Assembly (NCBI GenBank): GCA_035500095.1
Contig: DATJXN010000012.1
Coordinates: 1,947-65,946 of the forward strand
DNA: 64,000 bases
Source: Candidatus Binataceae bacterium
Lineage (GTDB): Bacteria; Desulfobacterota; Binatia; Binatales; Binataceae
Reading direction: 5' to 3'
Below are positions 1,004 through 44,120 of the stretch, piece after piece (the first letter of the stretch is position 1; each line of letters begins with the position of its first letter). The notes beneath the pieces are model-generated. The model saw nothing but the letters and a program-made list of their open reading frames with translations. It did no database searches and was not told the origin of the DNA. The translations under genes and the position numbers were made by a program.

Positions 1004-1005
1004 AT

Positions 1006-2142
1006 CTAAAGCTGCTCGCGCGTGATTCGCGTCGGCGATAGAACGGCTTCGGTCACACCCTGCGCGGCAAGATCGGAGGGAACGCCGTGGCCAAGCGCGA
1101 GGCTCGCGCAAAGCCGCCCCATCGACGGCGAGGTCTCGATTCCATACCCGCCCTGGCCGGCCAGCCAGAAGAATCCCGCGACCCGCGGGTCATAACCGAC
1201 GACCGGGCATCCGTCGGCGACGAACGAGCGCAGGCCTGCCCATTTGCGGTTGATATGTGTTACCGGAATTCGCGCCGCGCGCTGAATCCGGTCCACCGCG
1301 ACCGCGACGTCGAAGTCGTCGGGCTGCGCATCGCACGGTTCCATCGGCGTCTGATCGGCCGGCGAGCCGAGGAATTTGCCCGCGTCGGGCTTGAAATAGA
1401 ATTCTTCGCCGACGTCGATCACCGAGGGCCATTTGGCGATCTGCGCGCCGGGCGGCGGATCGAAAATAAATGCCGTGCGCCGCTTGGGCACGAGACCGAT
1501 CGGCGCCGCGCCGGCCATCGCGCCGACCACGTCGCACCATGCACCGGCCGCATTGACCACGACCGGCGCGGCGAAATCGCCGGCTGCGGTCCGCACGCTC
1601 CACTTGTCGCCCTCGCGTGAGAGACCAGTCAGCTCGGCGCCGGTTATGAGTCGGCCGCCGCGCGCCCGCATCCCCCCGATGAATCCCCAGTGGATCGCGT
1701 GCACGTCCATGTCCATCGCTTCGGGATCGAGCACGGCGCCGGCGAGGTAGTCTTCTCTCAGCAGCGGCACGAGGCTGCAGGCGCCCTTCGCGTCGAGTCG
1801 GCGCACGCCGGCGATGTGCCGCGAGGACTGCGCAAAACTCTTTTCGAGCAAATCGGACTGGTCGCCGCGCCCGATCAGCAGCATCCCGCGCTCGGTCAGC
1901 AATGGATGTTCCGTGAATCCGGCGGGCGGGTTGAGAAAGAAGTTTTTCGCGCCGCGGCTCAGCGCGCGAATCACCGCGGGACCGTGGGTCTGGACGAAGA
2001 GCGCCGCGGAGCGGCCGGTCGTATGGTAGCCGGGCTGGCTTTCGCGCTCGAGCACCAGGACTCGCGCATGCGCCGCCAGTTCATATCCGGCCGATGCGCC
2101 CGCGATACCGCAGCCCACGACTATGAAATCGAAACTCTCCAT
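1006..2142 (-). CDS. FAD-dependent oxidoreductase, DAO (glycine/D-amino-acid oxidase-like) family
   Basis: 378-aa ORF. N-terminal dinucleotide fold FDFIVVGCGIAGASAGYELA and overall DAO-family layout. Likely co-transcribed with the deacylase downstream. Confidence 0.8.
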   Translation of the reverse strand: MESFDFIVVGCGIAGASAGYELAAHARVLVLERESQPGYHTTGRSAALFVQTHGPAVIRALSRGAKNFFLNPPAGFTEHPLLTERGMLLIGRGDQSDLLEKSFAQSSRHIAGVRRLDAKGACSLVPLLREDYLAGAVLDPEAMDMDVHAIHWGFIGGMRARGGRLITGAELTGLSREGDKWSVRTAAGDFAAPVVVNAAGAWCDVVGAMAGAAPIGLVPKRRTAFIFDPPPGAQIAKWPSVIDVGEEFYFKPDAGKFLGSPADQTPMEPCDAQPDDFDVAVAVDRIQRAARIPVTHINRKWAGLRSFVADGCPVVGYDPRVAGFFWLAGQGGYGIETSPSMGRLCASLALGHGVPSDLAAQGVTEAVLSPTRITREQL

Positions 2143-2338
2143 CTTAAAAGCTCAAGCGGACCAATCGGCCGGCTTATCGGCAATCGTCCGTTCTCTTATC
2201 GCGCCGGGCGGCGAGAGCGGTCAAGCCGGTTGCGCAGCCACCGGCGTTCCGGCTAACGATCGCGGGCGGCGAGCGGCGGGGAGCTTTGCGATCGTAGCTG
2301 TCGCAGACGAGGATAATTGTAGAAGGAAAGACGGACTA

Positions 2339-3124
2339 TTGAAGATCGCCTCTTTCAACGTGAACGGCATTACCGCGCGCCTGCCGAACCTTCTGCGCTG
2401 GCTCGCCGAAGCCAGGCCCGACGTCGCGTGCCTTCAGGAACTCAAGATCCCGCACGACCGGTTTCCCGAGGCCGCGATTCGCGAGGCGGGCTACGGCGTC
2501 ATCTGGCACGGCCAGAAGAGCTTCAATGGCGTCGCGATCCTTGCGCGCGGCGCCGATCCGGTGGAGGTTCGCCGCGTCTTGCCGGGCGATCCGGATGATC
2601 TGCATAGCCGCTATATCGAGGGAAGAATCCAGGGACAGACCGGGGGCGTGCTCGTCGGATGCCTTTATCTCCCCAATGGCAATCCCGCGCCCGGGCCGAA
2701 GTTCGATTACAAGCTCGGATGGCTCCGCCGGCTCGAGGACCACGCCGAGACGCTCCTCGCCCAGAATTCCCCGGTTGTTCTGGCCGGCGACTACAATGTG
2801 ATTCCCACCGAGCTCGACGTCTTCGCGCCGGAACGCTGGGTCGATGACGCTTTGTTCCGGCCCGAGTCGCGTGAGGCCTTCGCCCGGCTGCTCGCGCGCG
2901 GCTGGACCGACGCGCTGCGCAAGATGCATCCCGAGGAGCGCATATATACCTTCTGGGATTACTTTCGAAATCATTTCGGGAACGATCGCGGGCTGCGCAT
3001 CGATCATCTTCTGCTCAGTCCCTCCCTTGCGCCGCGGCTCGTCGCTGCAGGTGTCGATCGCGAGGTTCGCGGCTGGGAGAAAGCGAGCGATCACGCCCCG
3101 ACCTGGGCGCAACTCGCCGACTGA
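2339..3124 (+). CDS. xthA: exodeoxyribonuclease III
   Basis: LKIASFNVNGITARLPNLLRWLAEARPDVACLQELK, then GDYNV and DHAP motifs of the ExoIII/APE1 family. The ORF-track start at 2123 adds about 70 junk residues. TTG at 2339 is preceded by AGAAGGAAAG (2321-2330) with 8-nt spacing. Confidence 0.85.
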   Translation: MKIASFNVNGITARLPNLLRWLAEARPDVACLQELKIPHDRFPEAAIREAGYGVIWHGQKSFNGVAILARGADPVEVRRVLPGDPDDLHSRYIEGRIQGQTGGVLVGCLYLPNGNPAPGPKFDYKLGWLRRLEDHAETLLAQNSPVVLAGDYNVIPTELDVFAPERWVDDALFRPESREAFARLLARGWTDALRKMHPEERIYTFWDYFRNHFGNDRGLRIDHLLLSPSLAPRLVAAGVDREVRGWEKASDHAPTWAQLAD

Positions 3125-3169
3125 CTTTAGCTTTGAGTATGTTGAATCATCTGAATTGAGGCCGACAAG

Positions 3170-4114
3170 ATGCAGAAAACCAGGGTCGCTCTTGCCTTTT
3201 CAATAATGCCCGACAGTCCGCTCGAGAAGGTCATCGAGTGGACGCGCGAGGCCGAAGATATGGGCTATACCGCGGTCTTCATGACCGAGGCGAATAACGA
3301 CTCGCTCGCCTGTTCGCTCGCGCTGGGAATGCAGACGCGGCGCATCGGGCTCGGCACCGCGATCACCAACATCTACCTGCGCCATCCGGCGCTGCTCGCC
3401 AACGAGGCCGCAACCGTCCATCAGCTTACCGGCGGACGCTTCATCCTGGGCCTCGGCACCGGCCACGGCGAGGGCAACTCGCGCCTCGGGATCGAAATGG
3501 GGCAGCCGATGGCGAAGATGCGCGAGACGGTGGTGACGCTGCGCAAGATGCTCGAGGGCGGCGGCACCGGGCCGAAGATCAGCGGCAAGCTGCCTCTCTA
3601 TCTTGCCGGCGTTTCGCGCCCGATGGTGCGGATGGCGGGCGAGATCGCCGACGGCGTGATTTTCAATTTCTTTCCGCCCGCGCGGGTGCGCGAGGCGCTC
3701 GGCGAAGTCGCGGAAGGGGCGCGCGCGGCCGGCCGCGAGCCGGCCGCGGTCGAGCCGGTGCTGTTCGCGACCGCGTTCATCGCCGACGACCTCGAAGCGG
3801 CGCGCCGACCGGCGCGCACGCTGCTGTCGCGCTACGGAGCTCTGCGGTTTTACGGCAACATGATGGCGAAGGCCGGTTTCGAGCGCGAGATTGCGGTGAT
3901 ACGCGCGGCGCGCGGCGACGCCGCCGCCGCACTCGCCGCGGTGAGCGACCCGATGATCGACGCGACGCTGCTGGTCGGATCGGAGGGGCGGGTGCGCGAG
4001 CGGCTGGCCGAGCTGAGCGCGCCGGGCATCGGCACGGCGATCGTGTTCGTCAACCCGGTCAACGAGGCGCGCGAGGCCGCGGTGCGCCGCCTGATGCGGG
4101 CGCTACGTCCGTAG
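3170..4114 (+). CDS. LLM-class (luciferase-like) flavin/F420-dependent oxidoreductase
   Basis: 314 aa. The stretch GYTAVFMTEANNDSL...ITNIYLRHPALLANEAATVHQLTGGRFILGLGTGH is typical of luciferase-like monooxygenase-family oxidoreductases. Confidence 0.8.
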   Translation: MQKTRVALAFSIMPDSPLEKVIEWTREAEDMGYTAVFMTEANNDSLACSLALGMQTRRIGLGTAITNIYLRHPALLANEAATVHQLTGGRFILGLGTGHGEGNSRLGIEMGQPMAKMRETVVTLRKMLEGGGTGPKISGKLPLYLAGVSRPMVRMAGEIADGVIFNFFPPARVREALGEVAEGARAAGREPAAVEPVLFATAFIADDLEAARRPARTLLSRYGALRFYGNMMAKAGFEREIAVIRAARGDAAAALAAVSDPMIDATLLVGSEGRVRERLAELSAPGIGTAIVFVNPVNEAREAAVRRLMRALRP

Positions 4115-4179
4115 GAGCGCAGCACCCGCATCGGGCAGGTCGGCGGCCGCACGACGGCCACGCGGCAGCGGCGATCGCA

Positions 4180-4935
4180 CTACGACGGCGACGCCGGCGC
4201 GGCCTCGCCGCCGCCCGGCTTCAGCATCGCGAAGAACCCGCGGATCCGGTTGTAGTTGACGCCGAAGTCGCCCTTCCCGTCGCGCGAGCGCGAGCGCATC
4301 TCAACCAAGCTGCTGTCGGGATTGGAGCCCGGGCGCACCTGGATCACGAAATCGTCGCGAAAGCGGAAGAGATACGAGGTCTCGACGCCTTCGATCGTAT
4401 GCGTAGCCGGATCGACGAAGACGATTACCCATCCCGGATACGTGTTGGCCGCGGCTTTCACCTTGGCGAACGCGTCTTCGGGCTTCTCGTCGAGCCGCAG
4501 CGGATCGAGCTTCGGGTATTCGTTGCTCTGCACGGGCTGGAACTTGGCGCGGTCGTACTTCATCGAGTCCGCCGCCATATCCGGCGGTTTAACGAACTCC
4601 GGCGGGTTGTCGTAGTCGGTGGTGATGTCGTTGATCTCGGGATACGGCATCGACATCCAGCGCCACATCGTCAAGCCAACCGGGACGGCGACCAGCAGAC
4701 CGAGCACGAAACCGCCTACGGCCTTGGGCCGCCCGGGCCTGCGCGCGGGCGCGGCGGTGCGCGCGATACCGATGAGGCCGAAGAGCATCGCCAGCACCCC
4801 GACGGCAAAGCTCAGCAGAAAAGCGAGAAAGCCGGTCATCGGCGGAACCAGCCCTAGATGGGCGGCTACGACGCCGATTCCCAGGAGCAGTACGGCAAGT
4901 ATCGCGTCCAAGATCGAAAGCCAGGCCGTGATCAT
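4180..4935 (-). CDS. DUF1499-like membrane-anchored protein
   Basis: Only the last 251 codons of the 1078-aa track ORF look real: MITAWLSILDAILAVLLLGIG (about 3 TM segments), then a soluble domain ending RSRSRDGKGDFGVNYNRIRGFFAML. ATG at 4935 has an AAGGAG RBS upstream. The remainder of the long ORF is antisense to metH. Confidence 0.7.
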   Translation of the reverse strand: MITAWLSILDAILAVLLLGIGVVAAHLGLVPPMTGFLAFLLSFAVGVLAMLFGLIGIARTAAPARRPGRPKAVGGFVLGLLVAVPVGLTMWRWMSMPYPEINDITTDYDNPPEFVKPPDMAADSMKYDRAKFQPVQSNEYPKLDPLRLDEKPEDAFAKVKAAANTYPGWVIVFVDPATHTIEGVETSYLFRFRDDFVIQVRPGSNPDSSLVEMRSRSRDGKGDFGVNYNRIRGFFAMLKPGGGEAAPASPS

Positions 4936-5112
4936 CGTCGTCTCTCCTTGTCTCAGTGCGGCATCGTCCGAACAAACGGGGCAGCAAACCGATCCGTTAC
5001 AGCAGTCAAGGGCTAAATACAAAACGATCGCGCATCGTTCCGGTCGAAATTGCCCGTCACGCTTCGCTCGGATAGGCTGACGACAGAGGCCATCGAGCCT
5101 CTTCCCCCATCC

Positions 5113-8652
<3,540 letters not shown>

Positions 8653-9564: not shown

Positions 9565-10911
9565 ATGCAACGGATCAAGTCCCAACCGACCGACGCACTT
9601 TCATATAATCCGAACGAGGCCAGGTACTGGGAGCGCGCGAAACTCGACCAGGAAATCGAGCGCGTCTTCGACATCTGCGCGGGTTGCAGGCTGTGTTTCA
9701 ATCTGTGTCCCTCGTTCCCGCAGTTGTTTGACGCGCTCGACGCCACGGACGGCGACGTGCGGAGCCTGGGCGTGGCGCAAACGCGCCGGGTCGTCGATCT
9801 GTGCTACGGCTGCAAGCTGTGCGAGGTGCGATGCCCCTACACGCCGCATGACGGCCACGAGTTCCAGCTCGACTTTCCGCGCCTGATGCTGCGCGCGCGC
9901 GCGGTCGAGGGCCGGGAGAAGGGCGTCGGCAGGCGCGAGAAGATGCTGGGTAATCCGGATCGGCTGGGCAAGCTCGGCAGCATCGTTCCGAAGCTCGCCA
10001 ACTGGGCCTGCCGCAGTCCCTTTCAGCGTGCGATGATGGAGAAGCTGCTTGGCATCTCGCGCGCCAAGCAATTGCCCGAGTTCGCCGAGGAGACCTTCGA
10101 GGCGTGGCTCAAGCGCACAGGCCTTCCGCCTGCGCCGCCCGAGCCCGCGGCCAAGGTCGCGATCTTCCACACTTGCTTCGTCAACTATTACAATCCCGCG
10201 CCCGGACGGGCGCTGGTCTCGGTGCTTGGGCGCAATCGATGCGCGATCGCGTCGCCCGGGCAGAACTGCTGCGGGATGCCGGCGCTCGACGGCGGCGAGG
10301 TCGCCTTTGCGCAGAAGCTCGCGCGCGCCAACGTGGACTCGATGCTGCCGCTGGTGCGCCAGGGCTACCGCGTCGCCGCGATCAATCCGACCTGCTCGCT
10401 GATGATGCGCAGTGAATACCCGCACTTGCTCGACAGCGCCGAAGCGCGTGAATTCGCCGCCGCCGTCGCCGATCCGCACGAACTGCTCTATGCGCTACGG
10501 CGCGAGGGAAAATTCGATCGCGATTTTCGCACCACGCCGGGCAAGGTCGCGTATCACGTGCCCTGTCATCTCAAAGCCCAGAACATCGGCCTGCGCTCGC
10601 GCGATCTCGTGCGCTCGATCCCGGGCGCCGAGGTCGTGACCGTTGACGCGTGCACGGCGCACGACGGCACCTGGGCGATGAAGAAGGAGTACTTCGAGCT
10701 CTCGATGAAGTGGGGCACAAAGGCGTTCGACGGAATGAAGAACGCCGAGGCCGAAGTGCTGGCCACGGACTGTCCGCTCGCCGCGATCCAGATCGAACAG
10801 GCGATCGGCGTGCGCCCGCTCAATCCGGTCGAAATCCTCGCGCGCGCTTACGAGGCCGACGGCTTCACGAGGCTCGTGCCGCCGCCGGAGCCGCCCGCCG
10901 CCCAAGAGTGA
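9565..10911 (+). CDS. (Fe-S)-binding protein with two 4Fe-4S ferredoxin motifs and CCG domains (HdrD/GlpC-like)
   Basis: 448 aa. CAGCRLCFNLCP and CYGCKLCEVRCP cluster motifs, and the cysteine-rich CCG signature GQNCCGMP. Confidence 0.82.
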   Translation: MQRIKSQPTDALSYNPNEARYWERAKLDQEIERVFDICAGCRLCFNLCPSFPQLFDALDATDGDVRSLGVAQTRRVVDLCYGCKLCEVRCPYTPHDGHEFQLDFPRLMLRARAVEGREKGVGRREKMLGNPDRLGKLGSIVPKLANWACRSPFQRAMMEKLLGISRAKQLPEFAEETFEAWLKRTGLPPAPPEPAAKVAIFHTCFVNYYNPAPGRALVSVLGRNRCAIASPGQNCCGMPALDGGEVAFAQKLARANVDSMLPLVRQGYRVAAINPTCSLMMRSEYPHLLDSAEAREFAAAVADPHELLYALRREGKFDRDFRTTPGKVAYHVPCHLKAQNIGLRSRDLVRSIPGAEVVTVDACTAHDGTWAMKKEYFELSMKWGTKAFDGMKNAEAEVLATDCPLAAIQIEQAIGVRPLNPVEILARAYEADGFTRLVPPPEPPAAQE

Positions 10912-10926
10912 AGCAGGAGTCAAGCC

Positions 10927-11511
10927 GTGAAGCCGATAACTCCGCACGAAATTCTGCCGCTTACGACGTATGACCGTGTGCGCGCCCTACTCCGCCCGCT
11001 CTGTATCGCCGAGAAGGCGCGACGGCGCCTCGCGGTCGGCCCGCATCTCACGCTACTGTTCGAAAACCGCCAGACGATCTGGTATCAAATCCAGGAGATT
11101 TTGCGCACCGAGCGCATCTTCGAGGACGCCGCGATTAACGCCGAGGTCGAAAACTACAACGAACTCCTCCCGCGTCCCGGCGAACTCTCCGCCACCCTGC
11201 TCATCGAGTATGCCGACCCGGCCGAACGCGACGTCGAGCTTCCGCGCCTGCTCGGACTCGAACGCCATATTTGGATCGTTCTTGACGGACAGCGCATCGG
11301 CGCGCGCTTCGATGAACGACAAATGTCGCCGGATCAGATAAGCGCGGTCCAGTTCATCGCCTTCCCGCTCGGCGCGGATGCGACTCGGTTTGGCGATCTG
11401 GCGGCCGCGGGCAAGGTCGCGGTCGAAGCGGACCATCCGCATCTCGCTGTGCGCGCCCTCGTCCAAGCCCCACTGGCAGAAGCGCTGACTGACGATCTGC
11501 GCCCGGATTAG
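10927..11511 (+). CDS. DUF3501 family protein
   Basis: 194 aa, GTG start with an AGGAG RBS at 10915-10919. The sequence (HLTLLFENRQTIWYQIQEILRTERIF...) matches my memory of DUF3501, which commonly follows rubrerythrin/HdrD-like pairs. Confidence 0.65.
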   Translation: MKPITPHEILPLTTYDRVRALLRPLCIAEKARRRLAVGPHLTLLFENRQTIWYQIQEILRTERIFEDAAINAEVENYNELLPRPGELSATLLIEYADPAERDVELPRLLGLERHIWIVLDGQRIGARFDERQMSPDQISAVQFIAFPLGADATRFGDLAAAGKVAVEADHPHLAVRALVQAPLAEALTDDLRPD

Positions 11512-12933: not shown

Positions 12934-13296
12934 ATGAACCGTGCGCGGAAACCAGTGAAGATCGTGCCCAAGGGCTGGGGACGCGAAGTCTGGATCGTGA
13001 ACGGCGATCTTTACTGCGGCAAGATCCTCGAAATTCAAAAGGGCAAGCGCTGCTCGCTGCACTTTCACAAGATTAAAAACGAGTCCTTCTACCTGCGCAC
13101 GGGCCGGCTGAAAATCCGGGTCAAGGAATCGCCCGAGGCCGAGACCCTCGAAGAGTTCGAGCTCGTCGCCGGCGAGTGCATGGACGTTCCGCAGGGACTG
13201 GTGCATCAGATGGAAGCGCTGGAGGACGCCGAATTGTTCGAATTTTCCACCCAGCACTTCGACAGCGATTCTCATCGCCTCGTTCGCGGCGACTGA
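12934..13296 (+). CDS. small cupin-domain protein (sugar-nucleotide-associated type)
   Basis: [56 protein letters not shown] at 12934 follows GGGAAAG. The track start at 12829 adds an unlikely leader. Confidence 0.7.
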
Positions 13297-13325
13297 ACGG
13301 AATCGGACCGGAACACAGGGAAGCC

Positions 13326-14342
13326 ATGGCCAAAGTTGCACTGATAACCGGGGTTACCGGGCAGGACGGCTCTTACCTCGCGGAATTTCTGGTCAAGCAG
13401 GGTTACGAAGTGCACGGCGTCGTGCGCCGGACCTCGAGCTTCGCCACCGGGCGTATCGACCACATGCGCAAGGGTTTCGGCCACGGCCCTTCGCCCCTCC
13501 AGCTGCACTACGGCGATCTGGGCGACGGCACGGGGCTGCGCGCGATCATCGAGCAGGTCCGGCCCGACGAAGTTTACAATCTGGCCGCCCAATCTCACGT
13601 GCGCATCTCTTTCGACCAGCCTGAATACACCGCCGACGTGGTCGGCTTGGGCGCGCTCCGGCTGCTGGAGGCGCTGCGCGATCACAACAAGCGCCACGGG
13701 CGCGCGGCGCGCTACTACCAGGCGGGTTCGTCGGAGATGTTCGGGCGGGTGGCCGAAGTACCGCAGCGCGAGACGACGCCATTTCATCCGCGGAGCCCAT
13801 ACGCCTGCGCCAAGGTTTACGCGCACTGGCAGACGATCAATTACCGCGAGGCGTACGGGCTGTTCGCCGCCAATGGTATCCTGTTCAACCACGAATCGCC
13901 CCGGCGCGGCGAGAATTTCGTCACCCGCAAGATCACCCGCAGCGCCACCCGCATCAAGCTGGGCCTGCAGGACAGCCTCGCGCTCGGCAACCTCGACGCG
14001 CGCCGCGACTGGGGCTTTGCCGGCGACTACGTCGAGGCGATGTGGATGATGCTGCAGCGGGAACAGCCCGACGACTACGTGGTCGCCACCGGCGAAACCC
14101 ATTCGGTGCAGGAGTTCCTCGAGCGCGTGTTCGATCGGCTGAAGCTCGATTGGCACAAGTACGTACAGACCGACCCCCGGTATCTGCGGCCGGCCGAGGT
14201 TGACCTGCTGCAGGGCGACGCGTCCAAGGCGCGGCGCGTGCTGGGATGGAAGCCGCGGGTGAATTTCCAGCAACTGGTCGAGATGATGGTCGACTTCGAC
14301 CTCGAGTTGGCCGAGCGCGAAAAACGCAGCCGCGGCCAGTAG
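13326..14342 (+). CDS. gmd: GDP-mannose 4,6-dehydratase
   Basis: [35 protein letters not shown]...; an extended SDR with the characteristic Gmd N-terminus and YACAK (YxxxK). Confidence 0.92.
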
Positions 14343-14470: not shown

Positions 14471-15049
14471 ATGGCTGACCGGCGACGCAGATTTTCGGCC
14501 TTCATGGTGCGCGGCGCGATCGCGCGGCACTCGCTCAACGACGAGAGCGCGGCCTTCCCCGAAAGCTTCGCGCTGACGCGCCTGCACGACGCCGTGCAGT
14601 GGGCCCGCAAATATTCCTTTTTCACCTACCCTTTCGTCACTGCGTGCTGCGGAATGGAATATTTTTCGGTCGCGGGTCCGCGCTACGACATCGACCGCTT
14701 CGGCGCCGCGCTGCCGCGCTTCACTCCGCGTCAGGCCGATCTGCTGTTCGTCGTCGGCACCATCACCCAGCGCCAGGCTCCGATTCTGCGCCGCGTGTGG
14801 GAGCAGATGGCGGAGCCGAAATGGGTGGTTTCGTTCGGCGCCTGCACCAGTTCGGGCGGCCCCTACGACAACTATGCCGTGCTCCAGGGTATCGACCGCA
14901 TAATCCCCGTGGACCTCTACATTCCCGGATGCCCGCCGCGTCCCGAGGCCGTGCTCGACGGACTGATCAAACTGCAGTACCGCGTCCAGAACGAACGCCA
15001 GCCGCAACTCTGGTCCACGCTCCATGGCAGCGGACGCAAGCTCGATTAA
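14471..15049 (+). CDS. nuoB: NADH-quinone oxidoreductase subunit B
   Basis: N2-cluster ligand motifs TACCGMEY, GACTSSGGPY and IPGCPPRPE. The start is uncertain (ATG 14471 or ATG 14504). Confidence 0.88.
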   Translation: MADRRRRFSAFMVRGAIARHSLNDESAAFPESFALTRLHDAVQWARKYSFFTYPFVTACCGMEYFSVAGPRYDIDRFGAALPRFTPRQADLLFVVGTITQRQAPILRRVWEQMAEPKWVVSFGACTSSGGPYDNYAVLQGIDRIIPVDLYIPGCPPRPEAVLDGLIKLQYRVQNERQPQLWSTLHGSGRKLD

Positions 15050-16691
15050 CCCGGCGAAGGCCGCCGCCGCCGCCCCCAAAACCGTGAAGCTCACGGTCGA
15101 CGGCCGCCCGCTCGAGGCGCCCGAGGGCACGCCGCTTTTGCAGGCGATGCTCGATGCGGGAATGGATCTTCCGCACTATTGCTACCATCCCAAGCTCAGC
15201 ATCGACGGCAGTTGCCGGCTATGTCAGGTCAAGATCGAGGGGATGCCGAAGCTGCAGATCTCGTGCAACTCCCAGGTGCGCGACGGGATGGTGGTGAACA
15301 CCGCGGATCCGGAAGTCGCGCTGGCGCGCCGCGGTGTGCTCGAACTCCTGCTCGTAAACCATCCGCTGGACTGCCCGATCTGCGACAAGGCCGGCGAGTG
15401 CTGGCTGCAGAATTACGCGATGCGCTTTGGGAGCCGTCATGCGCGGACGCTCGATCCGCGCCGCAAGCATCAGAAACGCATCGATATCGGCGAGCGCATG
15501 CTGCTCGACCAGGAGCGATGCATCCTGTGCCGGCGTTGCGTGCGCTTTTGCCGCGAGATCAGCAAGACCGGCGAGCTCGCGGTCTTCAACCTCGGCGACC
15601 GCTCGGTCCTCGACATCCACGATCGCCGCCTCGACAACAACTACTCGATCTGCACCGCCGACATCTGCCCGGTCGGCGCGCTCGAAAGCAAGGACTTCCA
15701 TCATCGCATCCGCGTCTGGTTTCTCCAGGAAACCGCCAGCATATGTCCCGGCTGCTCCAACGGCTGCAACATCATGATCTCGGAGCATCGCAACCGCATC
15801 TGGCGGCTGACTCCGCGGCGCAACGACGCGGTCAACGACACCTGGATGTGCGACCCCGGGCGCCTGGAATACAAGCCGGTCGATGCCCCTGAGCGCCTGC
15901 GCTCGCCGATGGTCGCCGAGAACGGAGCGCTGGCGCAAGCCACCTGGCAGGGCGCGATCGCAACCGCAGCGGCCGCGATCGCCGCGCTCAAGGCACGCCA
16001 TGGAGATGGCGCGCTCGGGGCGGTCGTGTCGCCCCATTTGACGCTCGAGGAGAATTTCCGCTTCGGGGAGCTGCTGCGCGCCGCCGGTGCGGGCAAGGCC
16101 GCGATGGCCGTGCGCAAGCGCGCGGCCGACGATTTTTTGATCAAGACCGAAAAAGCGCCCAACGCGCGCGGCGTGCGCGAGCTGGGCCTGGTGAGCGGCG
16201 AGGACGACGGGCTCGGCGAGCTCACGCGAGCTCTGGAAGCCGGCGAGATCAAAGGGCTGTATCTTTGCGGCGAGGATTTGCTCGACACGCTTGCGCCCGA
16301 ACGTCTCGCGGCGACCGTAGCGATCCTGGGGCGGCTCGAACTGCTGATCGTGCAAAGCTTGAGGCTCGACCCCCGCCTTGCGGCGGCGGCGGCGGTGGTA
16401 TTACCCGCCACCACCTTCGCCGAGAAGGACGGCTCGTTCATCAATCACGCCGGGCGCGTGCAGCGCATCTACCAGGCGATCGAGACGGCGCCGGGATGGC
16501 TCGGCGACGGCGAGATTTTTACCCGTCTGCTCAACGCGATCGACGGCGGCGAGCGCCGTTTCGATCCCGACGCGATGTGGGCGCCAATGCGACGGGCGGA
16601 TCCGCGGTTCGCCGGGTTTTCGCTGGAGACCTTGGGGGCCAGCGGCGCGCTCTTGAATGGCGCCGGTGCGCAGAGTTCCAGCGTGCGCTGA
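15024..16691 (+). CDS. nuoG: NADH-quinone oxidoreductase subunit G-like (short, 555 aa)
   Basis: 2Fe-2S motif CYHPKLSIDGSCRLCQV...SC; HPLDCPICDKAGEC; CILCRRCVRFC; CPVGAL; CPGCSNGC; then a molybdopterin-oxidoreductase-like region ending LPATTFAEKDGSFINHAGRVQ. An alternative GTG start at 15084 (MKLTVDGRPLEAPEG) would remove the 26-nt overlap with nuoB. Confidence 0.85.
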   Translation: MAADASSINPAKAAAAAPKTVKLTVDGRPLEAPEGTPLLQAMLDAGMDLPHYCYHPKLSIDGSCRLCQVKIEGMPKLQISCNSQVRDGMVVNTADPEVALARRGVLELLLVNHPLDCPICDKAGECWLQNYAMRFGSRHARTLDPRRKHQKRIDIGERMLLDQERCILCRRCVRFCREISKTGELAVFNLGDRSVLDIHDRRLDNNYSICTADICPVGALESKDFHHRIRVWFLQETASICPGCSNGCNIMISEHRNRIWRLTPRRNDAVNDTWMCDPGRLEYKPVDAPERLRSPMVAENGALAQATWQGAIATAAAAIAALKARHGDGALGAVVSPHLTLEENFRFGELLRAAGAGKAAMAVRKRAADDFLIKTEKAPNARGVRELGLVSGEDDGLGELTRALEAGEIKGLYLCGEDLLDTLAPERLAATVAILGRLELLIVQSLRLDPRLAAAAAVVLPATTFAEKDGSFINHAGRVQRIYQAIETAPGWLGDGEIFTRLLNAIDGGERRFDPDAMWAPMRRADPRFAGFSLETLGASGALLNGAGAQSSSVR

Positions 16692-16780
16692 AGCGCTTGC
16701 CGTCGGACGATCAATTGACGCACTCTGTGCTTGCCGACCGGCGCCGCGCGCCGGCGCAAGCCGCAGGGGGAGCAAAGGCT

Positions 16781-18178
16781 ATGGCGAGCGCAGCCGTTTC
16801 CGAAGCGGGAAGCCTCAAGGGCTACGTCGCGACCCATCGCACGCTCGAGACCTATCCGGTCGGCGCGCATCGCTGGGCGATGCTGCTGCTTACCGTGCTC
16901 GCGACGATCGTCTCGTTTTACGAATTCCAGTTCGCGCCGCTGCTGCCGCTGTGGATTCCGACGCTGCACTTCAGCCTGGAAGACTTTACCGGCTTTTTAT
17001 TTTTCGCGGTGCTGCTGTCGGGCGCGTCGGCGATGATCGGCGGACCGCTCGCGGATCGTCACGGCCGCATTATCGTCATCGACGTGTGCCTCGCGATCAT
17101 CATCGTACTGACCTTTGCCAACCTGCTGATGACCGGGTTCTGGTCGTTCGTGATAGTCCGCGGCGCGATGAATCTTACCGCCGGGCTGATGTGGGGCGCC
17201 CTCGGAGGCCTTACCCGCGACATGTCGCCGCGCGTCAGCCGCGGCGCCGCCTTCGGCCTGCTTACGGTGGGCGCCGTAGGATGCATCTTCCTGTGGAATT
17301 TCATCAGCGGCGTGACGCTGCCGATCTTCGGCACCTGGCAATCGCAGATCTGGATCATGGGGCTGTTGTCGATCCTGATGTACGTCCCGGTCCTGCTGTG
17401 GCTCAAGGATCTGCACCCGAACCTGCGCCTGACGATCGTCGAGAGCGAAGCGGCGGTCGCGGCCGATCCCGCCGAGCACCTGCGCGAAGTGAGGATGGAG
17501 GTTCCGGCCAGCGGAAGCGCCGCTTTCAGACAGCTGCTGAGCCATTGGGAAGTGTGGGTCCTGGTCGTCGGCTCGGTGGCCTTTCTGACCCTGTCGATCA
17601 CCAGCCAGACATTCTTCCCGGTGATGTTCAACCGGGCGTTCCATTACACTCCGGCCGCAGCGGCCAAGATGGCGTCCTACTTCTGGCTGCTCAACCTGTT
17701 CATGCTGGTGCCGGCCGGATGGCTCTCGGACAAGCTGCGGATGCGCAAGCCCCTGGTGCTCGTCGGCACGGTCGCCTCGATGGTGGTGCTGATCTGGTGG
17801 ATTGAAACGTTCGCCAATCCGCTGCCGCCGTTCCAGTTGGGCGCGGTCATGTTTCTGCTCGGCGGGCTGGTCGCCTTCGCCTTCATCCCGTGGTGCGCGC
17901 AATATTCGGAGCTGCTCGAGGATATCGCGCCTGCTCTGCAGGCGAGCGGATGGTCGTTCTTCCAGTTGATCTATCGCGGCTGGATCGCGATCTCGGGCCC
18001 GCTGGTCGCATATGTTTCAAGCCATTACGGATGGGCCGCGTGGATGTGGGTGGCCGTCGCCGGCATGGCGACGCTGATTCCCGCGATGCTTGCGATCCGC
18101 GGCGGATGGGCGCCGACCAGAGCTGGACAGGGAGCGGGCGAGCACGCGGCGAGCGCAACGCGCCCATCGCCCGCCTGA
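16781..18178 (+). CDS. MFS-type transporter-like integral membrane protein embedded in the nuo cluster
   Basis: 465 aa from ATG 16781 (GGGGGA upstream). About 12 hydrophobic segments and the MFS loop motif GGPLADRHGR. The upstream 172 codons of the track ORF are Arg/Gly-rich junk overlapping nuoG. Confidence 0.75.
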   Translation: MASAAVSEAGSLKGYVATHRTLETYPVGAHRWAMLLLTVLATIVSFYEFQFAPLLPLWIPTLHFSLEDFTGFLFFAVLLSGASAMIGGPLADRHGRIIVIDVCLAIIIVLTFANLLMTGFWSFVIVRGAMNLTAGLMWGALGGLTRDMSPRVSRGAAFGLLTVGAVGCIFLWNFISGVTLPIFGTWQSQIWIMGLLSILMYVPVLLWLKDLHPNLRLTIVESEAAVAADPAEHLREVRMEVPASGSAAFRQLLSHWEVWVLVVGSVAFLTLSITSQTFFPVMFNRAFHYTPAAAAKMASYFWLLNLFMLVPAGWLSDKLRMRKPLVLVGTVASMVVLIWWIETFANPLPPFQLGAVMFLLGGLVAFAFIPWCAQYSELLEDIAPALQASGWSFFQLIYRGWIAISGPLVAYVSSHYGWAAWMWVAVAGMATLIPAMLAIRGGWAPTRAGQGAGEHAASATRPSPA

Positions 18179-18264
18179 GCCGATTCTGTAAGACTGATAG
18201 TGCGGTTGAAACTCCGGCGGTTTAAACTTCCGGGTTGACATCTGGGATAATTGACGCGAGCGAA

Positions 18265-18798
18265 ATGGCGGTTCGAGTCGTAAAGGTCGCACGTCCGGCG
18301 TCAGGCCTGGTCGGGGCGCTGTCGCTGAGGGCGGTGCTGGTGGGGCTGTGGGTCGCGATGGCCCATCTGTTGCGCAATCTCTTCGGCTTCATGCGCGGCC
18401 GCCAGGACTTCACCGTATTTTTTCCCGAGCAGCGCTTCGTGCACGCGCCCGCGATGCGCGGGATGCCGGTGCTGGTGCAGATGGAGAACGGCAAGGAACG
18501 ATGCGTCGCGTGCGGGCTCTGCGAGTGGGCCTGTCCCACTACCTGCATCACGATCTTCCCCGCCGAGACCGCCGACGAAGTCGAGCGTTATCCGGAAGTC
18601 TTCGACATCGACATGTCGCGCTGCATGTTCTGCGGACTGTGCGAAGAAGCCTGTCCGGAGGAGGCGATCGTGATGAGCCGCGAGGTCGAGATCGCAACCT
18701 ACTCGCGCCGTGGCTCGCTCTGGCACAAGGCCGACCTGCTCGTGCCGCAGGAGCGGCTTAAGACCCGAACCGATTTTCTGCGCCGCCACTATGAATAA
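18265..18798 (+). CDS. nuoI: NADH-quinone oxidoreductase subunit I
   Basis: Two 4Fe-4S motifs, CVACGLCEWACP and CMFCGLCEEACP, and the typical NuoI length and context. Confidence 0.88.
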   Translation: MAVRVVKVARPASGLVGALSLRAVLVGLWVAMAHLLRNLFGFMRGRQDFTVFFPEQRFVHAPAMRGMPVLVQMENGKERCVACGLCEWACPTTCITIFPAETADEVERYPEVFDIDMSRCMFCGLCEEACPEEAIVMSREVEIATYSRRGSLWHKADLLVPQERLKTRTDFLRRHYE

Positions 18799-18804
18799 AA
18801 ACCC

Positions 18805-19461
18805 ATGAGCGCCGCCGAAGAACCGAAAACGCCTGCGCCGCCCCCGCAGCCGTCGCCGCTGCTGCTGAAGGTTGCCGAGCGGCTCGGCCCGCTGGTCGAG
18901 GACCATCAGAGTTTTCGCGGCGACGACTGTATCCATGTCGCGCGCGCGAACCTTCTCAAGGCGGCGCGCGCGCTGCGCAACTCGCCGGACCTCGACTTCG
19001 ACATGCTTCTCGACGTCACTTGCGTCGATTATTTCGGCCAGCCCGACGGCTTTTATAACTCCCCGGAAACCTGGGATCGCAATCACAACCTGGTACGCAA
19101 GCGCGCCCCGTGGCGCCATCGAGTGAACCTGCCCGCGCGCGGCGACGCTCCGCGCTTTGCGATGGTCTATCACCTGGTCTCCACCCGCCTGCTCCATCGC
19201 CTGCGCGTCAAGTGCCGCGTGCCCGAGGACGATCCGACGATCGCGAGCCTGACCGAGCTGTGGGCGGGCGCCAACTGGCTGGAACGCGAGACCTTCGACC
19301 TCTACGGCATCCGCTTCGACGGCCATCCCGACCTTCGCCGCATCTATCTCTACGACGAATTCGTGGGCCATCCGCTGCGCAAGGACTACGCCAAGCACGA
19401 CGAACAACCGATAGAGCCCTATGCCGGACCAGGAGCCAAAGAACCCCGCCGTCCCCGTTGA
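18805..19461 (+). CDS. nuoC: NADH-quinone oxidoreductase subunit C
   Basis: 218 aa. The C-terminal ANWLERETFDLYGIRFDGHPDLRRI is the NuoC/30-kDa subunit signature. Confidence 0.88.
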   Translation: MSAAEEPKTPAPPPQPSPLLLKVAERLGPLVEDHQSFRGDDCIHVARANLLKAARALRNSPDLDFDMLLDVTCVDYFGQPDGFYNSPETWDRNHNLVRKRAPWRHRVNLPARGDAPRFAMVYHLVSTRLLHRLRVKCRVPEDDPTIASLTELWAGANWLERETFDLYGIRFDGHPDLRRIYLYDEFVGHPLRKDYAKHDEQPIEPYAGPGAKEPRRPR

Positions 19462-20659
19462 CGCGCCGCCCGCCGTTGCCGCGGACGAACTGCATACGCC
19501 GACGATGCGGATGCAGATGGGCCCGTCGCATCCGGCGACCCATGGCACGGTCAAGATGGTGCTCGACCTCGACGGCGAGCGAGTGGTCAAGGCCGACATC
19601 CAGGTCGGCTATCTCCATCGCGGCTTCGAGAAGGAGTGCGAAACCGGCTACTACTATCAGAACATCCCGTACACCGACCGCCTGAACTACAGTTCGCCGA
19701 TGCTCAACAACGTCGGCTACTGTCTCGCGGTCGAGAAGCTGATGGATCTGCGCACGCCGCCGCGCTGCGATTTTATCCGGGTGATCGCGGGCGAGATCTC
19801 GCGCATGAGCGATCACTACCTGTGCCTGGGCGCGATGGCGCTCGAGCTGGCGGCGATGACGCCGTTTCTCTACCTGATCGAAGCGCGCGAATTGATGTGC
19901 GACCTGCTCGACGCGCTCTGCGGCGCGCGCGTCACCACCAACTACATCCGGATCGGTGGCGTATCGGCCGACCTTCCCGACGGCTTCGATCGCTTCGCCA
20001 CCGCGCGGCTGGATCGTTCGCTCGCCCTGCTCGACGACGCCGACAAGCTGCTTACGCAAAATCCGGTTTTTCGCGAACGCGTCGAAGGCACCGGCCATAT
20101 GGCGCCCGAGGCGCTGATCGCCCACGGCGTGACCGGCCCGCTTCTCCGCGCCGGCGGCGTACCTTACGACGTTCGCCGCGTGCAGCCGTACCTGGTGTAT
20201 GGGGAGCTGGACTTCGACATCCCGGTCGGCGAGCACAGCGACAATTTCGATCGCTACCTGGTGCGGCTCGAGGAATTACGCCAGAGCCGCCGCATCATCG
20301 CGCAATGCTTTGAAAAGATCCCGGCCGGGCCCGTCAACTCCGACGACCCGCGCGTGCGCTGGCCGCGCAAAGGAAAGGTCTTCGGCCGCATGGAGGAGCT
20401 GATCGATCACTTCAAGCTGGTCACCGAGGGCGGGCTGATACCGCCGGGCGAGGTTTACCACGCGGTCGAGGGCGCCAACGGCGAACTCGGCTTCTATATC
20501 GTGAGCGACGGCACCGGCAAGCCTTACAAATGCCGCTGCCGCGCGCCCAGCTTCTCCAACATGTCGGCGCTGGAGAAGATGATCACCGGCGGGATGCTCG
20601 CCGACGTGGTGCCGACCTTCGACCTGATCAACATGATCGGCGGCGAGTGCGACCGCTAG
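19421..20659 (+). CDS. nuoD: NADH-quinone oxidoreductase subunit D
   Basis: MGPSHPATHGTVKMVLDLDGERVV, GYLHRGFEK and the C-terminal INMIGGECDR. No NiFe-hydrogenase cysteine motifs. Overlaps nuoC by 41 nt if the start is ATG 19421 (alternative ATG 19505). Confidence 0.9.
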   Translation: MPDQEPKNPAVPVDAPPAVAADELHTPTMRMQMGPSHPATHGTVKMVLDLDGERVVKADIQVGYLHRGFEKECETGYYYQNIPYTDRLNYSSPMLNNVGYCLAVEKLMDLRTPPRCDFIRVIAGEISRMSDHYLCLGAMALELAAMTPFLYLIEARELMCDLLDALCGARVTTNYIRIGGVSADLPDGFDRFATARLDRSLALLDDADKLLTQNPVFRERVEGTGHMAPEALIAHGVTGPLLRAGGVPYDVRRVQPYLVYGELDFDIPVGEHSDNFDRYLVRLEELRQSRRIIAQCFEKIPAGPVNSDDPRVRWPRKGKVFGRMEELIDHFKLVTEGGLIPPGEVYHAVEGANGELGFYIVSDGTGKPYKCRCRAPSFSNMSALEKMITGGMLADVVPTFDLINMIGGECDR

Positions 20660-20696
20660 GGCGCTGCCGCGGAGAACCACGCAGGCGTGAGACACG

Positions 20697-22487
20697 ATGG
20701 GCTTGTCGGCTGAGACCCGGGAAAAGATCCGCGCCGAGCAGGCGCGCTTTCCGAATCCGCGCGCCGCGCTGCTCGCGGCGATCTACCTCGCCCGCGACGA
20801 TTTGGGCGCGCTCGGCTCCGAGGCGTTCGCGGAGCTGGCGCCGCTCTTCGGGATGCGCCCCGCTGAAGTCGCCGAGGTCGCATCGTTCTATTCGCTCTTC
20901 AACCTGCCCCGCGCCGAGGCGGTTATTCAGGTCTGCACCAACCTGCCGTGCTGTCTCCGCGGCGCGCGCGGCGTGGTGCGCGACCTCGAGCATCGGCTCG
21001 GAATCAAGGCGGGCACTGCGACGCCCGACGGCCGCTTCGCGATCGCCGAAGTCGAATGTCTGGGGTCGTGCGCGACCGCGCCGGTGCTCCAGGTGAACCG
21101 CAATCCGTACCTGGAGAACGTGACCAGGGATTTCGCCGCGAGCCTGCTCGAATCGCCCGCGACGGCGCGGGCCGCGCGGCGGCCGGCGCCGATCATCTCG
21201 CGCGTTCCGGCGGGCGTCGACGCCTACCTGCTGCCGCCCGGCGCCGAGAAGCGGCTCACGCTGGACGAATACCGCGCGCACGGCGGCTTCGAGGCGGCGC
21301 CCAAGGCGGGCACGATGGCGCCCAAGGACCTCGCCGCGCTGGTCAAGGATTCCAACCTGCGCGGCCGCGGCGGCGCGGGCTTCGGCACCGGCCTCAAGTG
21401 GACGTTCATGCCGCCGCGTGACGCACGCCCGCGCTATCTCGCGGTCAACGCCGACGAAAGCGAGCCCGGCACCTTCAAGGACCGCCAGATCATGTCGCGC
21501 AATCCCTTCCTGCCGCTGGAGGGAATCATGATCGCGGGGATGGCGATGGAGTCCACGGCGGCCTTTGTCTACATCCGCGGCGAATACGTCGAGGAATTCG
21601 CCGCGATGAGCGCCGCGATCCGCGCGCTCTATGACGCAAAAATTCTCGGCGACAACGCGCTCGGCTTCAATCGCCGCTTCGACATCACGATCCAGCAGGG
21701 TGCGGGCGCCTATATCTGCGGCGAGGAGAGCGGGATGCTCGAGTCGATGGAGGGGCGCAAGGGCCAGCCGCGCAAACGCCCGCCCTTCCCCGCGCAGGCC
21801 GGACTCTGGGGCCAGCCGACCACCGTCGACAACGTCGAAACGCTCTCGCACGTGCCGGTGATCGTAACGCGCGGCGCACAGTGGTTCCTCGATGAAGGCG
21901 TGAAGAACGCCGCCGGACATACGCTGTTCGGCGTAAGCGGCCACGTCAACAATCCGGGAATTTTCGAGCTCCGGCTCGGCGTGAAGCTGCGCGACCTCAT
22001 CTATCAATACGCCGGCGGCGTGATTGGCGACCGCCCGATCAAGGCGGTGATTCCCGGCGGCGTCTCGATGCCGGTGCTGCGTGGAGATCAGATCGACGTC
22101 GCGATGGATCACGAATCGCTGCGCGCGGCCGGCACGCTTATCGGCACCGGCGGCGCGATCGTGATGGACGATCGCACCTGCATGGTGCGCGTGGCGCTGG
22201 TAGTCGCGCGCTTTTTCGAGCACGAGTCGTGCGGCCAGTGCACCCAGTGCCGCGAGGGCACCGGATGGACCTACCGGACGCTGCGCCGGATCGAAAGCGG
22301 CGGCGGCGAACCGCAGGACCTGCAAACCCTCGCCGACACCTTCGACTACATGGACGGCAAATGTATCTGTGCGCTCGCCGACGGCGCGTCGTGGGCCGCG
22401 CGCGCGTTCCTCAAACAGTTCCGCGCCGACTTCGAGGCCCATATCGCGGAGCATCGATGCCCCTTCCCGGAGAGCTTCGAGGTATGA
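20697..22487 (+). CDS. nuoEF: fused NADH-quinone oxidoreductase subunits E and F (single 596-aa polypeptide)
   Basis: N-terminal NuoE 2Fe-2S motifs CTNLPCC and CLGSCATAP. A roughly 30-aa linker follows, then NuoF motifs GRGGAGFGTGLKW, NADESEPGTFKD and ESCGQCTQCREG. There is no stop between the two modules. Confidence 0.9.
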   Translation: MGLSAETREKIRAEQARFPNPRAALLAAIYLARDDLGALGSEAFAELAPLFGMRPAEVAEVASFYSLFNLPRAEAVIQVCTNLPCCLRGARGVVRDLEHRLGIKAGTATPDGRFAIAEVECLGSCATAPVLQVNRNPYLENVTRDFAASLLESPATARAARRPAPIISRVPAGVDAYLLPPGAEKRLTLDEYRAHGGFEAAPKAGTMAPKDLAALVKDSNLRGRGGAGFGTGLKWTFMPPRDARPRYLAVNADESEPGTFKDRQIMSRNPFLPLEGIMIAGMAMESTAAFVYIRGEYVEEFAAMSAAIRALYDAKILGDNALGFNRRFDITIQQGAGAYICGEESGMLESMEGRKGQPRKRPPFPAQAGLWGQPTTVDNVETLSHVPVIVTRGAQWFLDEGVKNAAGHTLFGVSGHVNNPGIFELRLGVKLRDLIYQYAGGVIGDRPIKAVIPGGVSMPVLRGDQIDVAMDHESLRAAGTLIGTGGAIVMDDRTCMVRVALVVARFFEHESCGQCTQCREGTGWTYRTLRRIESGGGEPQDLQTLADTFDYMDGKCICALADGASWAARAFLKQFRADFEAHIAEHRCPFPESFEV

Positions 22488-22900
22488 GCGAGCACCGGCC
22501 GGCCCGCAACGCGATCGTCGCTATCCTGGGCACCCCCGACCGCACCGAGGGCAGCCTCGACGATCCGCGCGAGCGCGAGGAGAACGGCGTGCGCTTTAAC
22601 GAGAAGTGGATCTACACGCACCTTCGCCGCGACCCGGCGGGCGCCGCGATGCGCGCGGTTTACTGGATGCGCTACGACTTTAGCGGGACCGTCGTGCGCA
22701 ACAACGACGCCGAACCGTGGCGAGCCGACACCTCGCTGGTCGAGGCTGCGGCGAAACGCGACTCCCGCCTGCCGCCGCTCGATCCGGCGCATAATCCGCC
22801 GCTTGAGCCGAGCGCTAACTATCGCCCGGCGTCAGATTTTACCGGCGCGTCCCCGCTCGGGGGCGAACTCCAGGAAGAAAATCCCCGGAAAAAATCCTGA
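22484..22900 (+). CDS. hypothetical protein (138 aa), translationally coupled to nuoEF
   Basis: ATG 22484 overlaps the nuoEF TGA (22485-22487) as ATGA. High GC3 frame. I recognise no family (MSEHRPARNAIVAILGTPDRTEGSLDDPREREENGVRFNEKWIYTH...). Confidence 0.55.
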   Translation: MSEHRPARNAIVAILGTPDRTEGSLDDPREREENGVRFNEKWIYTHLRRDPAGAAMRAVYWMRYDFSGTVVRNNDAEPWRADTSLVEAAAKRDSRLPPLDPAHNPPLEPSANYRPASDFTGASPLGGELQEENPRKKS

Positions 22901-41998: not shown

Positions 41999-42147
41999 TG
42001 AGCGATGCTGCGACTCCTGTTGCGCTTGTCTTTCGGTTAAATCATCGAATTCTCGCACGATCCAGCGGAAGGGCGGGAACGCTCCTTGTTGTCGAAAAGC
42101 CATTCGATAGGCCGATATGGTAGGGTCAGCCGCGGGAGGAAAGTCAG

Positions 42148-44038: not shown

Positions 44039-44120
44039 TGCGGGGCGATCCGCGGCAGCGCTTCGTGTCGTCAGTCCGGTGCGGTCAGCCCGGTGCAATC
44101 GGTCCGATGCGATCCGTCAA

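Follow-up and report, generated by a model that had tools for sequence, protein, structure and literature searches.

The question raised by the locus described here is which enzyme is made from a complex I gene cluster that comprises every peripheral-arm subunit, no membrane-arm subunit and a transporter gene in its middle. The locus lies in a stretch of 64,000 nucleotides (nt) of contig DATJXN010000012.1 from a Candidatus Binataceae bacterium, referred to below as the window, and all coordinates are those of this stretch unless a locus is named. The family Binataceae is placed in Binatales, Binatia, Candidatus Binatota. Between positions 14471 and 22900, eight co-directional genes on the forward strand follow each other in the order nuoB, nuoG, a gene of the major facilitator superfamily (MFS), nuoI, nuoC, nuoD, a nuoE-nuoF fusion (nuoEF) and an open reading frame (ORF) of 138 amino acids (aa), i.e., B-G-MFS-I-C-D-EF-138-aa ORF. 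The reading preferred here, to which a probability of roughly 0.7 can be given, is that of a split nuo set: the operon accounts for the complete peripheral arm of an ordinary complex I whose membrane-arm genes lie elsewhere, and the MFS gene is a clade-specific insertion.

The window proteins were assigned by Pfam and NCBIfam profile scans, which bear out the re-ordered, one-strand peripheral-arm set B-G-[MFS]-I-C-D-EF described in the initial annotation. The unit begins with nuoB (14471-15049; Pfam Oxidored_q6, 9e-26), the homolog of PSST/Nqo6 with cluster N2, for which the gene caller prefers a start at 14504 over the one at 14471. It overlaps by 26 nt with nuoG (15024-16691), a short form of 555 aa with the Pfam domains Fer2_4, NADH-G_4Fe-4S_3, Fer4_Nqo3, Molybdop_Fe4S4 and Molybdopterin. 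A spacer of 89 nt (16692-16780) leads to the MFS_1 transporter gene (16781-18178), which encodes 465 aa with 12 helices and matches Pfam MFS_1 at 93.8 bits against a cut-off of 33.4, and a spacer of 86 nt (18179-18264) separates this gene from nuoI (18265-18798; Pfam Fer4 families), the homolog of TYKY/Nqo9 with clusters N6a and N6b. The 30-kDa/Nqo5 homolog nuoC (18805-19461; Pfam Complex1_30kDa, 3e-41) follows after 6 nt and overlaps by 41 nt with nuoD (19421-20659), the homolog of the 49-kDa/Nqo4 quinone-site subunit. After a further 37 nt, nuoEF (20697-22487; Pfam 2Fe-2S_thioredx, Complex1_51K, SLBB and NADH_4Fe-4S) encodes the site for NADH and flavin mononucleotide (FMN) together with clusters N1a and N3, and its end overlaps by 4 nt with the 138-aa ORF (22484-22900), which is the last gene of the unit and has no family match. 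All of these spacings had been given correctly beforehand, as had the statement that the window holds no membrane-arm gene: tblastn queries with NuoA, H, J, K, L, M and N of E. coli are without match in the 64 kb. In the remaining large ORFs of the window, Pfam profiles likewise detect no complex I family, only genes of unrelated metabolism.

Judged by their sequences, the Nuo proteins of the window are canonical complex I orthologs. NuoD scores above the NCBIfam equivalog cut-offs (NF004739, 478.3 vs 360; TIGR01962, 470.7 vs 459.35), as does the NuoF part of the fusion (NF010120, 474.8 vs 389), while NuoB exceeds the cut-offs of the nuoB subfamily models (206.8 vs 116 and 198.7 vs 142.7) and NuoC that of TIGR01961 (128.3 vs 122.45 bits). 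The best NCBIfam matches of NuoI are NuoI models, all of them slightly under cut-off (TIGR01971, 111.5 vs 113.05 bits). In the PDB, NuoD is closest to NDUFS2 (2e-112) and to T. thermophilus Nqo4 (3e-104), and its matches to hydrogenase relatives are much weaker (MBH alpha, 6e-34; FHL subunit 5, 2e-32).

The cofactor sites, which the initial annotation had called intact, are all present on inspection; only its count of three of the four N2 cysteines has to be amended, as NuoB has the complete ligand set C59, C60, C125 and C154. NuoI has two 4Fe-4S motifs of the type CxxCxxCxxxCP (C80/83/86/90 and C120/123/126/130), with the sequences CVACGLCEWACP and CMFCGLCEEACP. The EF fusion displays the FMN/NADH motifs GAGAYICGEE and GRGGAGFGTGLKW, the CGQCTQC...C cysteines of N3 and the N1a cysteines C80/C85/C121/C125, and NuoG the ligand motifs for N1b, N4, N5 and N7 (2Fe-2S, HxxxCxxCxxxxxC and CxxCxxC). 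With regard to the quinone site, NuoD shares the GPSHPATHG loop (with the beta1-beta2 His), the Tyr of DRLNY and the C-terminal GGECDR with its nearest canonical-operon relatives; the acidic partner position is a Glu, the same as in four of these relatives (L045, L047, L048 and L049).

Conservation was also assessed at the columns that are invariant in canonical enzymes, defined as at least 95% identical in 21-25 canonical-operon sequences. The Binataceae proteins retain 43 of 47 such columns in NuoB (91%), 84 of 93 in NuoD (90%), 30 of 36 in NuoI (83%) and all 23 in NuoC (100%). The substitutions found there are nearly all conservative, and leave-one-out tests give a comparable retention for divergent canonical members, E. 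coli included. The short NuoG and the EF fusion are also seen outside Binataceae: NuoG alignments cover about 520-530 codons in the nearest canonical operons, and gene calls of 529-533 aa occur in the A-E-F-G-H-J-K-L-M-N clusters of another lineage, which are treated below. A twin-arginine signal was considered for NuoB on account of the MADRRRRFSAF that opens the product of the 14471 start (14471-14540), and rejected: no hydrophobic core comes after it and the gene caller places the start at 14504.

Whether this layout is peculiar to one contig was addressed with a NuoD scan, in which one genome per GTDB species was searched for six exact 8-residue peptides of the window NuoD. Loci were then mapped by tblastn with the window proteins and the membrane subunits of E. 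coli. The exact window NuoD is present on nine metagenome contigs, and the gene order is identical in the six that were read. The scan yielded about 35 loci at 70-97% identity to the window NuoD, all from metagenome-assembled genomes (MAGs) that bear either the label Binataceae or one of the generic labels delta proteobacterium and Proteobacteria. Recurrence on six near-identical contigs and in about 35 species-level genomes means that the layout is not a product of chance or an assembly artefact. The synteny proposed for checking in the initial annotation, B-G-MFS-I-C-D-EF, is found, with the 138-aa ORF after it, in every spanning locus (roughly 30) with a NuoD identity of 72-97%. In the 10-kb flanks of the cluster, tblastn detected no membrane-arm or further nuo gene for any of the approximately 35 related genomes, and the canonical order A-B-C-D-E-F-G-H-I-J-K-L-M-N was found in no Binataceae locus. 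This gene order is typical of the complex I family and is not a defining property of the enzyme. The flanks of the cluster vary among the loci, with gmd, a sigma-70 gene or a PfkB-family kinase gene beside it. In the window, as had been noted before, gmd (13176-14342) stands directly 5' of nuoB and convergent genes lie 3' of the 138-aa ORF.

Six loci of 70-72% NuoD identity (L039-L044) are without the MFS gene. Four of these (L039, L042, L043 and L044) span the whole B-G-I-C-D-EF-138-aa ORF cluster, with nuoG and nuoI only 3-7 nt apart; the other two (L040 and L041) are shorter contigs that start at G or I and have no MFS match. The MFS gene is thus not an integral member of the cluster, since it is missing from loci in which the cluster is otherwise entire. 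In a neighbour-joining tree of NuoD, L039-L044 are sister to all MFS-bearing loci, and the canonical operons fall outside both. The nearest outgroups, MAGs of Nitrospinota and Nitrospirae with 56-60% NuoD identity, have their genes ordered A-B-C-D-E-F-G-H-I-J-K-L-M. The most parsimonious history has the genes re-ordered in the ancestor of the family and the MFS gene inserted between nuoG and nuoI afterwards, in one branch; a loss of the MFS gene in the sister clade is a possible alternative. In the MFS-bearing loci, the spacers from nuoG to the MFS gene measure 87-607 nt and those from the MFS gene to nuoI 31-436 nt, while at the remaining junctions of the cluster, in all loci, the genes mostly overlap or are a few nt apart. 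The spacers on either side of the MFS gene are the widest and most variable ones in the cluster.

In the window, the 89-nt spacer upstream of the MFS gene has a G+C-rich palindrome (about 16739-16757) and a Shine-Dalgarno-like GGGGGAG, and the 86-nt spacer downstream of it is comparatively A+T-rich. Neither spacer exhibits a terminator-like element, a promoter-like element above background or an Rfam element, which makes it plausible that the MFS gene is co-transcribed with the nuo genes. MFS homologs of 50-97% identity occupy the same position across dozens of species; in NCBI, homologs of the protein are labelled Candidatus Binataceae. One contig with a NuoD identical to that of the window (L005, JGI Ga0335083_10028130) differs in that a 1-nt indel splits the MFS gene (L005 1514-2910) into two ORFs. 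It is a single indel in 1600 nt at 99.8% identity, and may stem from an error of assembly or from a variant in the population whose MFS gene is broken.

The MFS protein has weak NCBIfam matches to the organic-anion transporter subfamilies TIGR00893 and TIGR00881, all below cut-off. Its AlphaFold model, built with 31 homologs, has a mean predicted local distance difference test score (pLDDT) of 83.1 and a predicted template modelling score of 0.82, and displays a 12-helix fold with no added domain. The best Foldseek matches to it are DgoT, SLC37A4/G6PT, sialin, GlpT and OxlT; each of the top 50 matches listed is an MFS transporter, and the TM-scores reach 0.70 when normalised by the query and 0.81 when normalised by the target. 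By its predicted fold, the protein is an ordinary anion-symporter-like transporter. A second copy of the gene was found on a 327-kb contig (L010, ERZ25039474 contig_11531), where the nuo-linked protein P0094 and its paralog P0102 are 79% identical. At L010 10001-14093, the paralog is directly upstream of genes for 2Fe-2S (Fer2) and MoCoBD subunits of the aldehyde-oxidase type. As a side observation, the MFS family of P0094 and P0102 thus neighbours redox-enzyme genes twice.

The initial annotation had left two readings, a split operon of unusual design or a distinct NADH-oxidising module that docks to a different membrane partner, for which the MFS-type protein was in view. It had also reckoned with a hitch-hiking MFS gene should related genomes have the same cluster without it, and this is what L039-L044 exhibit. 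An MFS-less sister clade, a paralog of 79% identity at an unrelated locus and a plain transporter fold together argue that the MFS gene was inserted later and does not encode the membrane partner, so that the second reading, in its MFS form, is contradicted. The first one is favoured by the canonical subunits, the canonical-operon relatives and a published survey.

According to this survey (Murphy et al., 2021, PMC8262859, legend of supplementary Fig. S4), each of the 108 Binatota genomes analysed there encodes the full set of complex I subunits. In other prokaryotes, complex I genes are known to be dispersed over several clusters (PMC3144371). The membrane arm was searched for with a NuoH profile (A1) built from the nearest canonical operons. 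Among the matches listed from the protein search there are only operons of the Nitrospinota type and of the 11-subunit type. In the metagenome scan, which covered at least 80 loci, all arrangements are canonical or 11-subunit ones except for two fragments (L163 and L171) that show G-H-J without nuoI. The NuoH of the L171 type has no close canonical-operon relative; its best match is L048 at 58%, and the window NuoD is 59% identical to that of L048. Two NuoH candidates chosen by amino-acid composition for a lower G+C content were still G+C-high.

Homologs of the L171 NuoH led to six loci (L174-L179) of a high-G+C soil lineage with the order A-E-F-G-H-J-K-L-M-N, i.e., without exactly B, C, D and I. 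The clusters extend over 6290-17139 in L174 and 6117-17109 in L175, with L176, L177, L178 and L179 as further members and L163 and L171 as fragments, and a FeoAB/GpsA synteny is kept upstream of them. Since B, C, D and I are absent from these clusters, they must be encoded elsewhere in the genomes concerned, and this type of cluster indicates that the genes of the Q module need not be encoded together with those of the membrane arm.

The mirror-image loci were considered as the partner locus of Binataceae and set aside as unproven. Their G+C content is 66.5-74.5%, vs 58-65% in the Binataceae loci, a difference of 5-10 points, and their tetranucleotide distance to Binataceae is that of unrelated controls. 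They have no flanking orthologs, names, samples or contigs in common with Binataceae, and NuoF and NuoG trees place them sister to L046, not to the Binataceae copies. From the composition, flank, name and tree evidence, L174-L179 are an analogous split and not a demonstrated partner. L046 itself (127-8246, a MAG labelled Thermodesulfobacteriota) has the order D-E-F-G-H-J-K-L, with about 124 nt between nuoH and nuoJ and nuoI missing there. Another peripheral-only, re-ordered nuo cluster belongs to a different phylum: in a Candidatus Eisenbacteria MAG (L071 9053-13802), a B-D-G-I cluster without a Complex1_30kDa (NuoC) match and without a membrane-arm gene nearby is flanked by signal peptidase and M20 peptidase genes.

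Under the split-set reading, the unit would be the peripheral-arm operon of a bona fide NADH:quinone oxidoreductase, with NuoB, C, D and I as the Q module and NuoE-F and NuoG as the N module. The canonical A-to-N operon would have been broken in the family ancestor, and the peripheral genes re-ordered to B-G-I-C-D-EF, with the lineage-specific 138-aa gene at the 3' end. Genes A, H, J, K, L, M and N of the membrane arm would be found at another locus more than 10 kb away, presumably a single one in the same genome, and the enzyme would be put together from proteins expressed from two or more transcription units, the peripheral arm docking on NuoH as usual. The MFS gene would have been inserted between nuoG and nuoI later, in one subclade, and its product would be no structural partner of the arm. 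Several points weigh against this reading. The membrane-arm locus was not found in any Binataceae genome, the listed matches of the outgroup NuoH profile being from other lineages, and the sole positive statement on the membrane arm is one legend sentence at the phylum level, derived from hidden Markov model scans of MAGs. Binataceae genomes may have more than one copy of B, C, D and I, and hence a second complete nuo operon. Finally, the MFS gene keeps its position, at 50-97% identity, in dozens of species, so that it may have some functional link to the operon.

If such a second operon exists, the cluster would be an auxiliary peripheral arm beside a complete canonical set, an alternative isoform that might be swappable on a common membrane arm or condition-specific. 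We regard this as unlikely. Many soil bacteria do have two complex I gene sets, and a scan with six exact 8-residue peptides is blind to a divergent NuoD paralog. Module sharing has moreover been proposed for Syntrophobacter fumaroxidans, in which a single nuoEFG goes with two copies of each remaining nuo gene (PMC4453560). Against these points stand the lack of any further nuo gene within 10 kb in the approximately 35 Binataceae loci and a conservation as expected of a sole copy (NuoD identities of 70-97%, with 90% of the canonical-invariant columns retained). No Binataceae-labelled canonical operon is seen among the 80 metagenome NuoH loci or the 240 NuoH homologs listed either, which is weak evidence, since these lists are dominated by other lineages. 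The probability falls further, to a low level, for a Binataceae partner locus of the A-E-F-G-H-J-K-L-M-N type, which would endow the enzyme with two NADH-input modules, i.e., the fused EF with G, or the separate E, F and G. The four genes that L174-L179 lack are precisely B, C, D and I of the window cluster, and the 58% identity of the mirror-cluster NuoH to L048 parallels the 59% of the window NuoD. However, G+C content and tetranucleotide profile set the mirror loci apart from Binataceae, their NuoF and NuoG are sister to those of L046, and no contig, sample or name is in common.

An arm that docks on no NuoH-type subunit at all, binding instead another membrane protein (the MFS protein where present) or acting as a soluble NADH:acceptor oxidoreductase, is highly improbable. 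To our knowledge, the quinone cavity is formed jointly with a NuoH-type subunit in all relatives of complex I, and NuoB, D, I and C retain the residues invariant in NuoH-docking enzymes, the quinone-site loop included. While the MFS protein is the sole integral membrane protein of the unit, keeps its position in most of the family and has no membrane-arm gene for company in the window or in the flanks of up to 10 kb of the Binataceae loci, the sister clade has the whole cluster without it, a near-identical paralog resides in another gene context and its model resembles substrate transporters without any extra domain. The report of all 14 subunits in Binatota genomes (PMC8262859) also speaks against a missing membrane arm. 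There is accordingly very little to expect from the idea that B-G-I-C-D-EF and the 138-aa protein pass electrons to a different partner, possibly the MFS-fold protein in most of the family; if true, it would be a new way of coupling the electron-input arm of complex I to the membrane.

Compared with the canonical nuo/nqo operon (NuoA-N of E. coli, Nqo1-14 of T. thermophilus), all seven peripheral subunits of the Binataceae cluster are orthologous and the cofactor set is full, whereas the genes are re-ordered, NuoE and NuoF are fused, no membrane-arm gene is found in the operon or within 10 kb, and the MFS gene and the 138-aa ORF come in addition. The layout is hence an unusual arrangement of the genes for an ordinary enzyme, and does not point to a novel type of enzyme. 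In cyanobacteria and plastids, ndh genes are spread over several loci, and in such dispersed sets one enzyme is likewise made from separate loci and assembled after translation; the Binataceae set differs from them in being split exactly at the boundary between the arms, with all peripheral genes together and the N module included. In Paracoccus denitrificans and Rhodobacter capsulatus, the structural genes of the nqo/nuo clusters are interspersed with unidentified reading frames. An unrelated ORF inside the operon is thus common to them and to Binataceae, in which, however, the insert is a full-size 12-helix transporter confined to one subclade. This transporter is nearest in fold to the anion:cation symporters and organophosphate:phosphate antiporters (DgoT, GlpT, SLC37A4, sialin and OxlT), with identities of 14-18%.

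The L174-L179 clusters are the mirror image of the Binataceae cluster, and in neighbour-joining trees their NuoF and NuoG belong to the same broad clade as those of the window, but they retain their own E, F and G and have a higher G+C content. As in Syntrophobacter fumaroxidans (Spero et al., 2015, PMC4453560) and the 11-subunit enzymes without N module, modules are separately encoded and inherited; there it is the N module that stands alone, whereas in Binataceae the Q and N modules are together and apart from the membrane arm. A literature search for an MFS gene in a nuo operon, for splits of the nuoBCDI type and for nuo genes of Binatia returned no description of the arrangement. We know of no earlier description of the order B-G-(MFS)-I-C-D-EF.

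If the split-set reading is true, an abundant uncultured soil family keeps the genes for the two arms of complex I cleanly apart, and the range of NuoD identities across the family (70-97%) indicates that this separated layout has long been kept. The mechanism of the enzyme as it is understood stays unchanged. The family would be well suited for studying how stoichiometry and assembly are coordinated without operon linkage, which role the conserved 138-aa protein plays and why a transporter gene is tolerated in the middle of the operon. It also provides a warning for annotation, as calls of "complete" or "partial" complex I that are based on operons misjudge such genomes.

The 138-aa protein is the only truly uncharacterised component of the unit. 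Its gene is found 3' of nuoEF in every locus that reaches this point, MFS-bearing or not, and an alignment of the protein (A2) has 27 invariant columns. Sequence and profile searches reveal no relative in Pfam, NCBIfam or the PDB, and only 64 representative clusters at E<=1e-3 are obtained from a library of 1.84 billion proteins. Compared with described accessory subunits of complex I such as Nqo15, NDUFS4, NDUFS6 and NDUFA12, it likewise yields no Pfam, NCBIfam or PDB profile match. By inspection of the sequence no transmembrane segment is predicted, and the protein appears to be soluble; a single-sequence structure model has a pLDDT of 44.8, too poor to use. Tandem matches to its core (about residues 39-93), four to six of them, occur in two larger proteins, of 373 and 456 aa (P0280 and P0302), which suggests that this core may be a repeatable small domain. 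The protein may be an accessory subunit or an assembly factor, for either of which it is a candidate. By eye, its LGTPD...W.Y motif recalls BamE/SmpA_OmlA-like domains.

Other features of the window are mentioned here as minor observations. Upstream of the nuo cluster, positions 9565-11511 encode a protein of 448 aa, in which a CCG domain and faint 4Fe-4S matches were detected, directly followed by a DUF3501 protein, and this pair is kept upstream of the nuo cluster in the closest contigs. We take the CCG-domain protein to be reminiscent of HdrD/GlpC-type proteins. Two overlapping ORFs on opposite strands are present at 43968-46118, one of 685 aa on the forward strand, without Pfam match at E<=1e-5, and one of 665 aa on the reverse strand. 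On the reverse strand at 38540-42163, a single ORF of 1207 aa combines biotin carboxylase, biotinyl carrier and carboxyltransferase, i.e., an acyl-CoA carboxylase in one chain.

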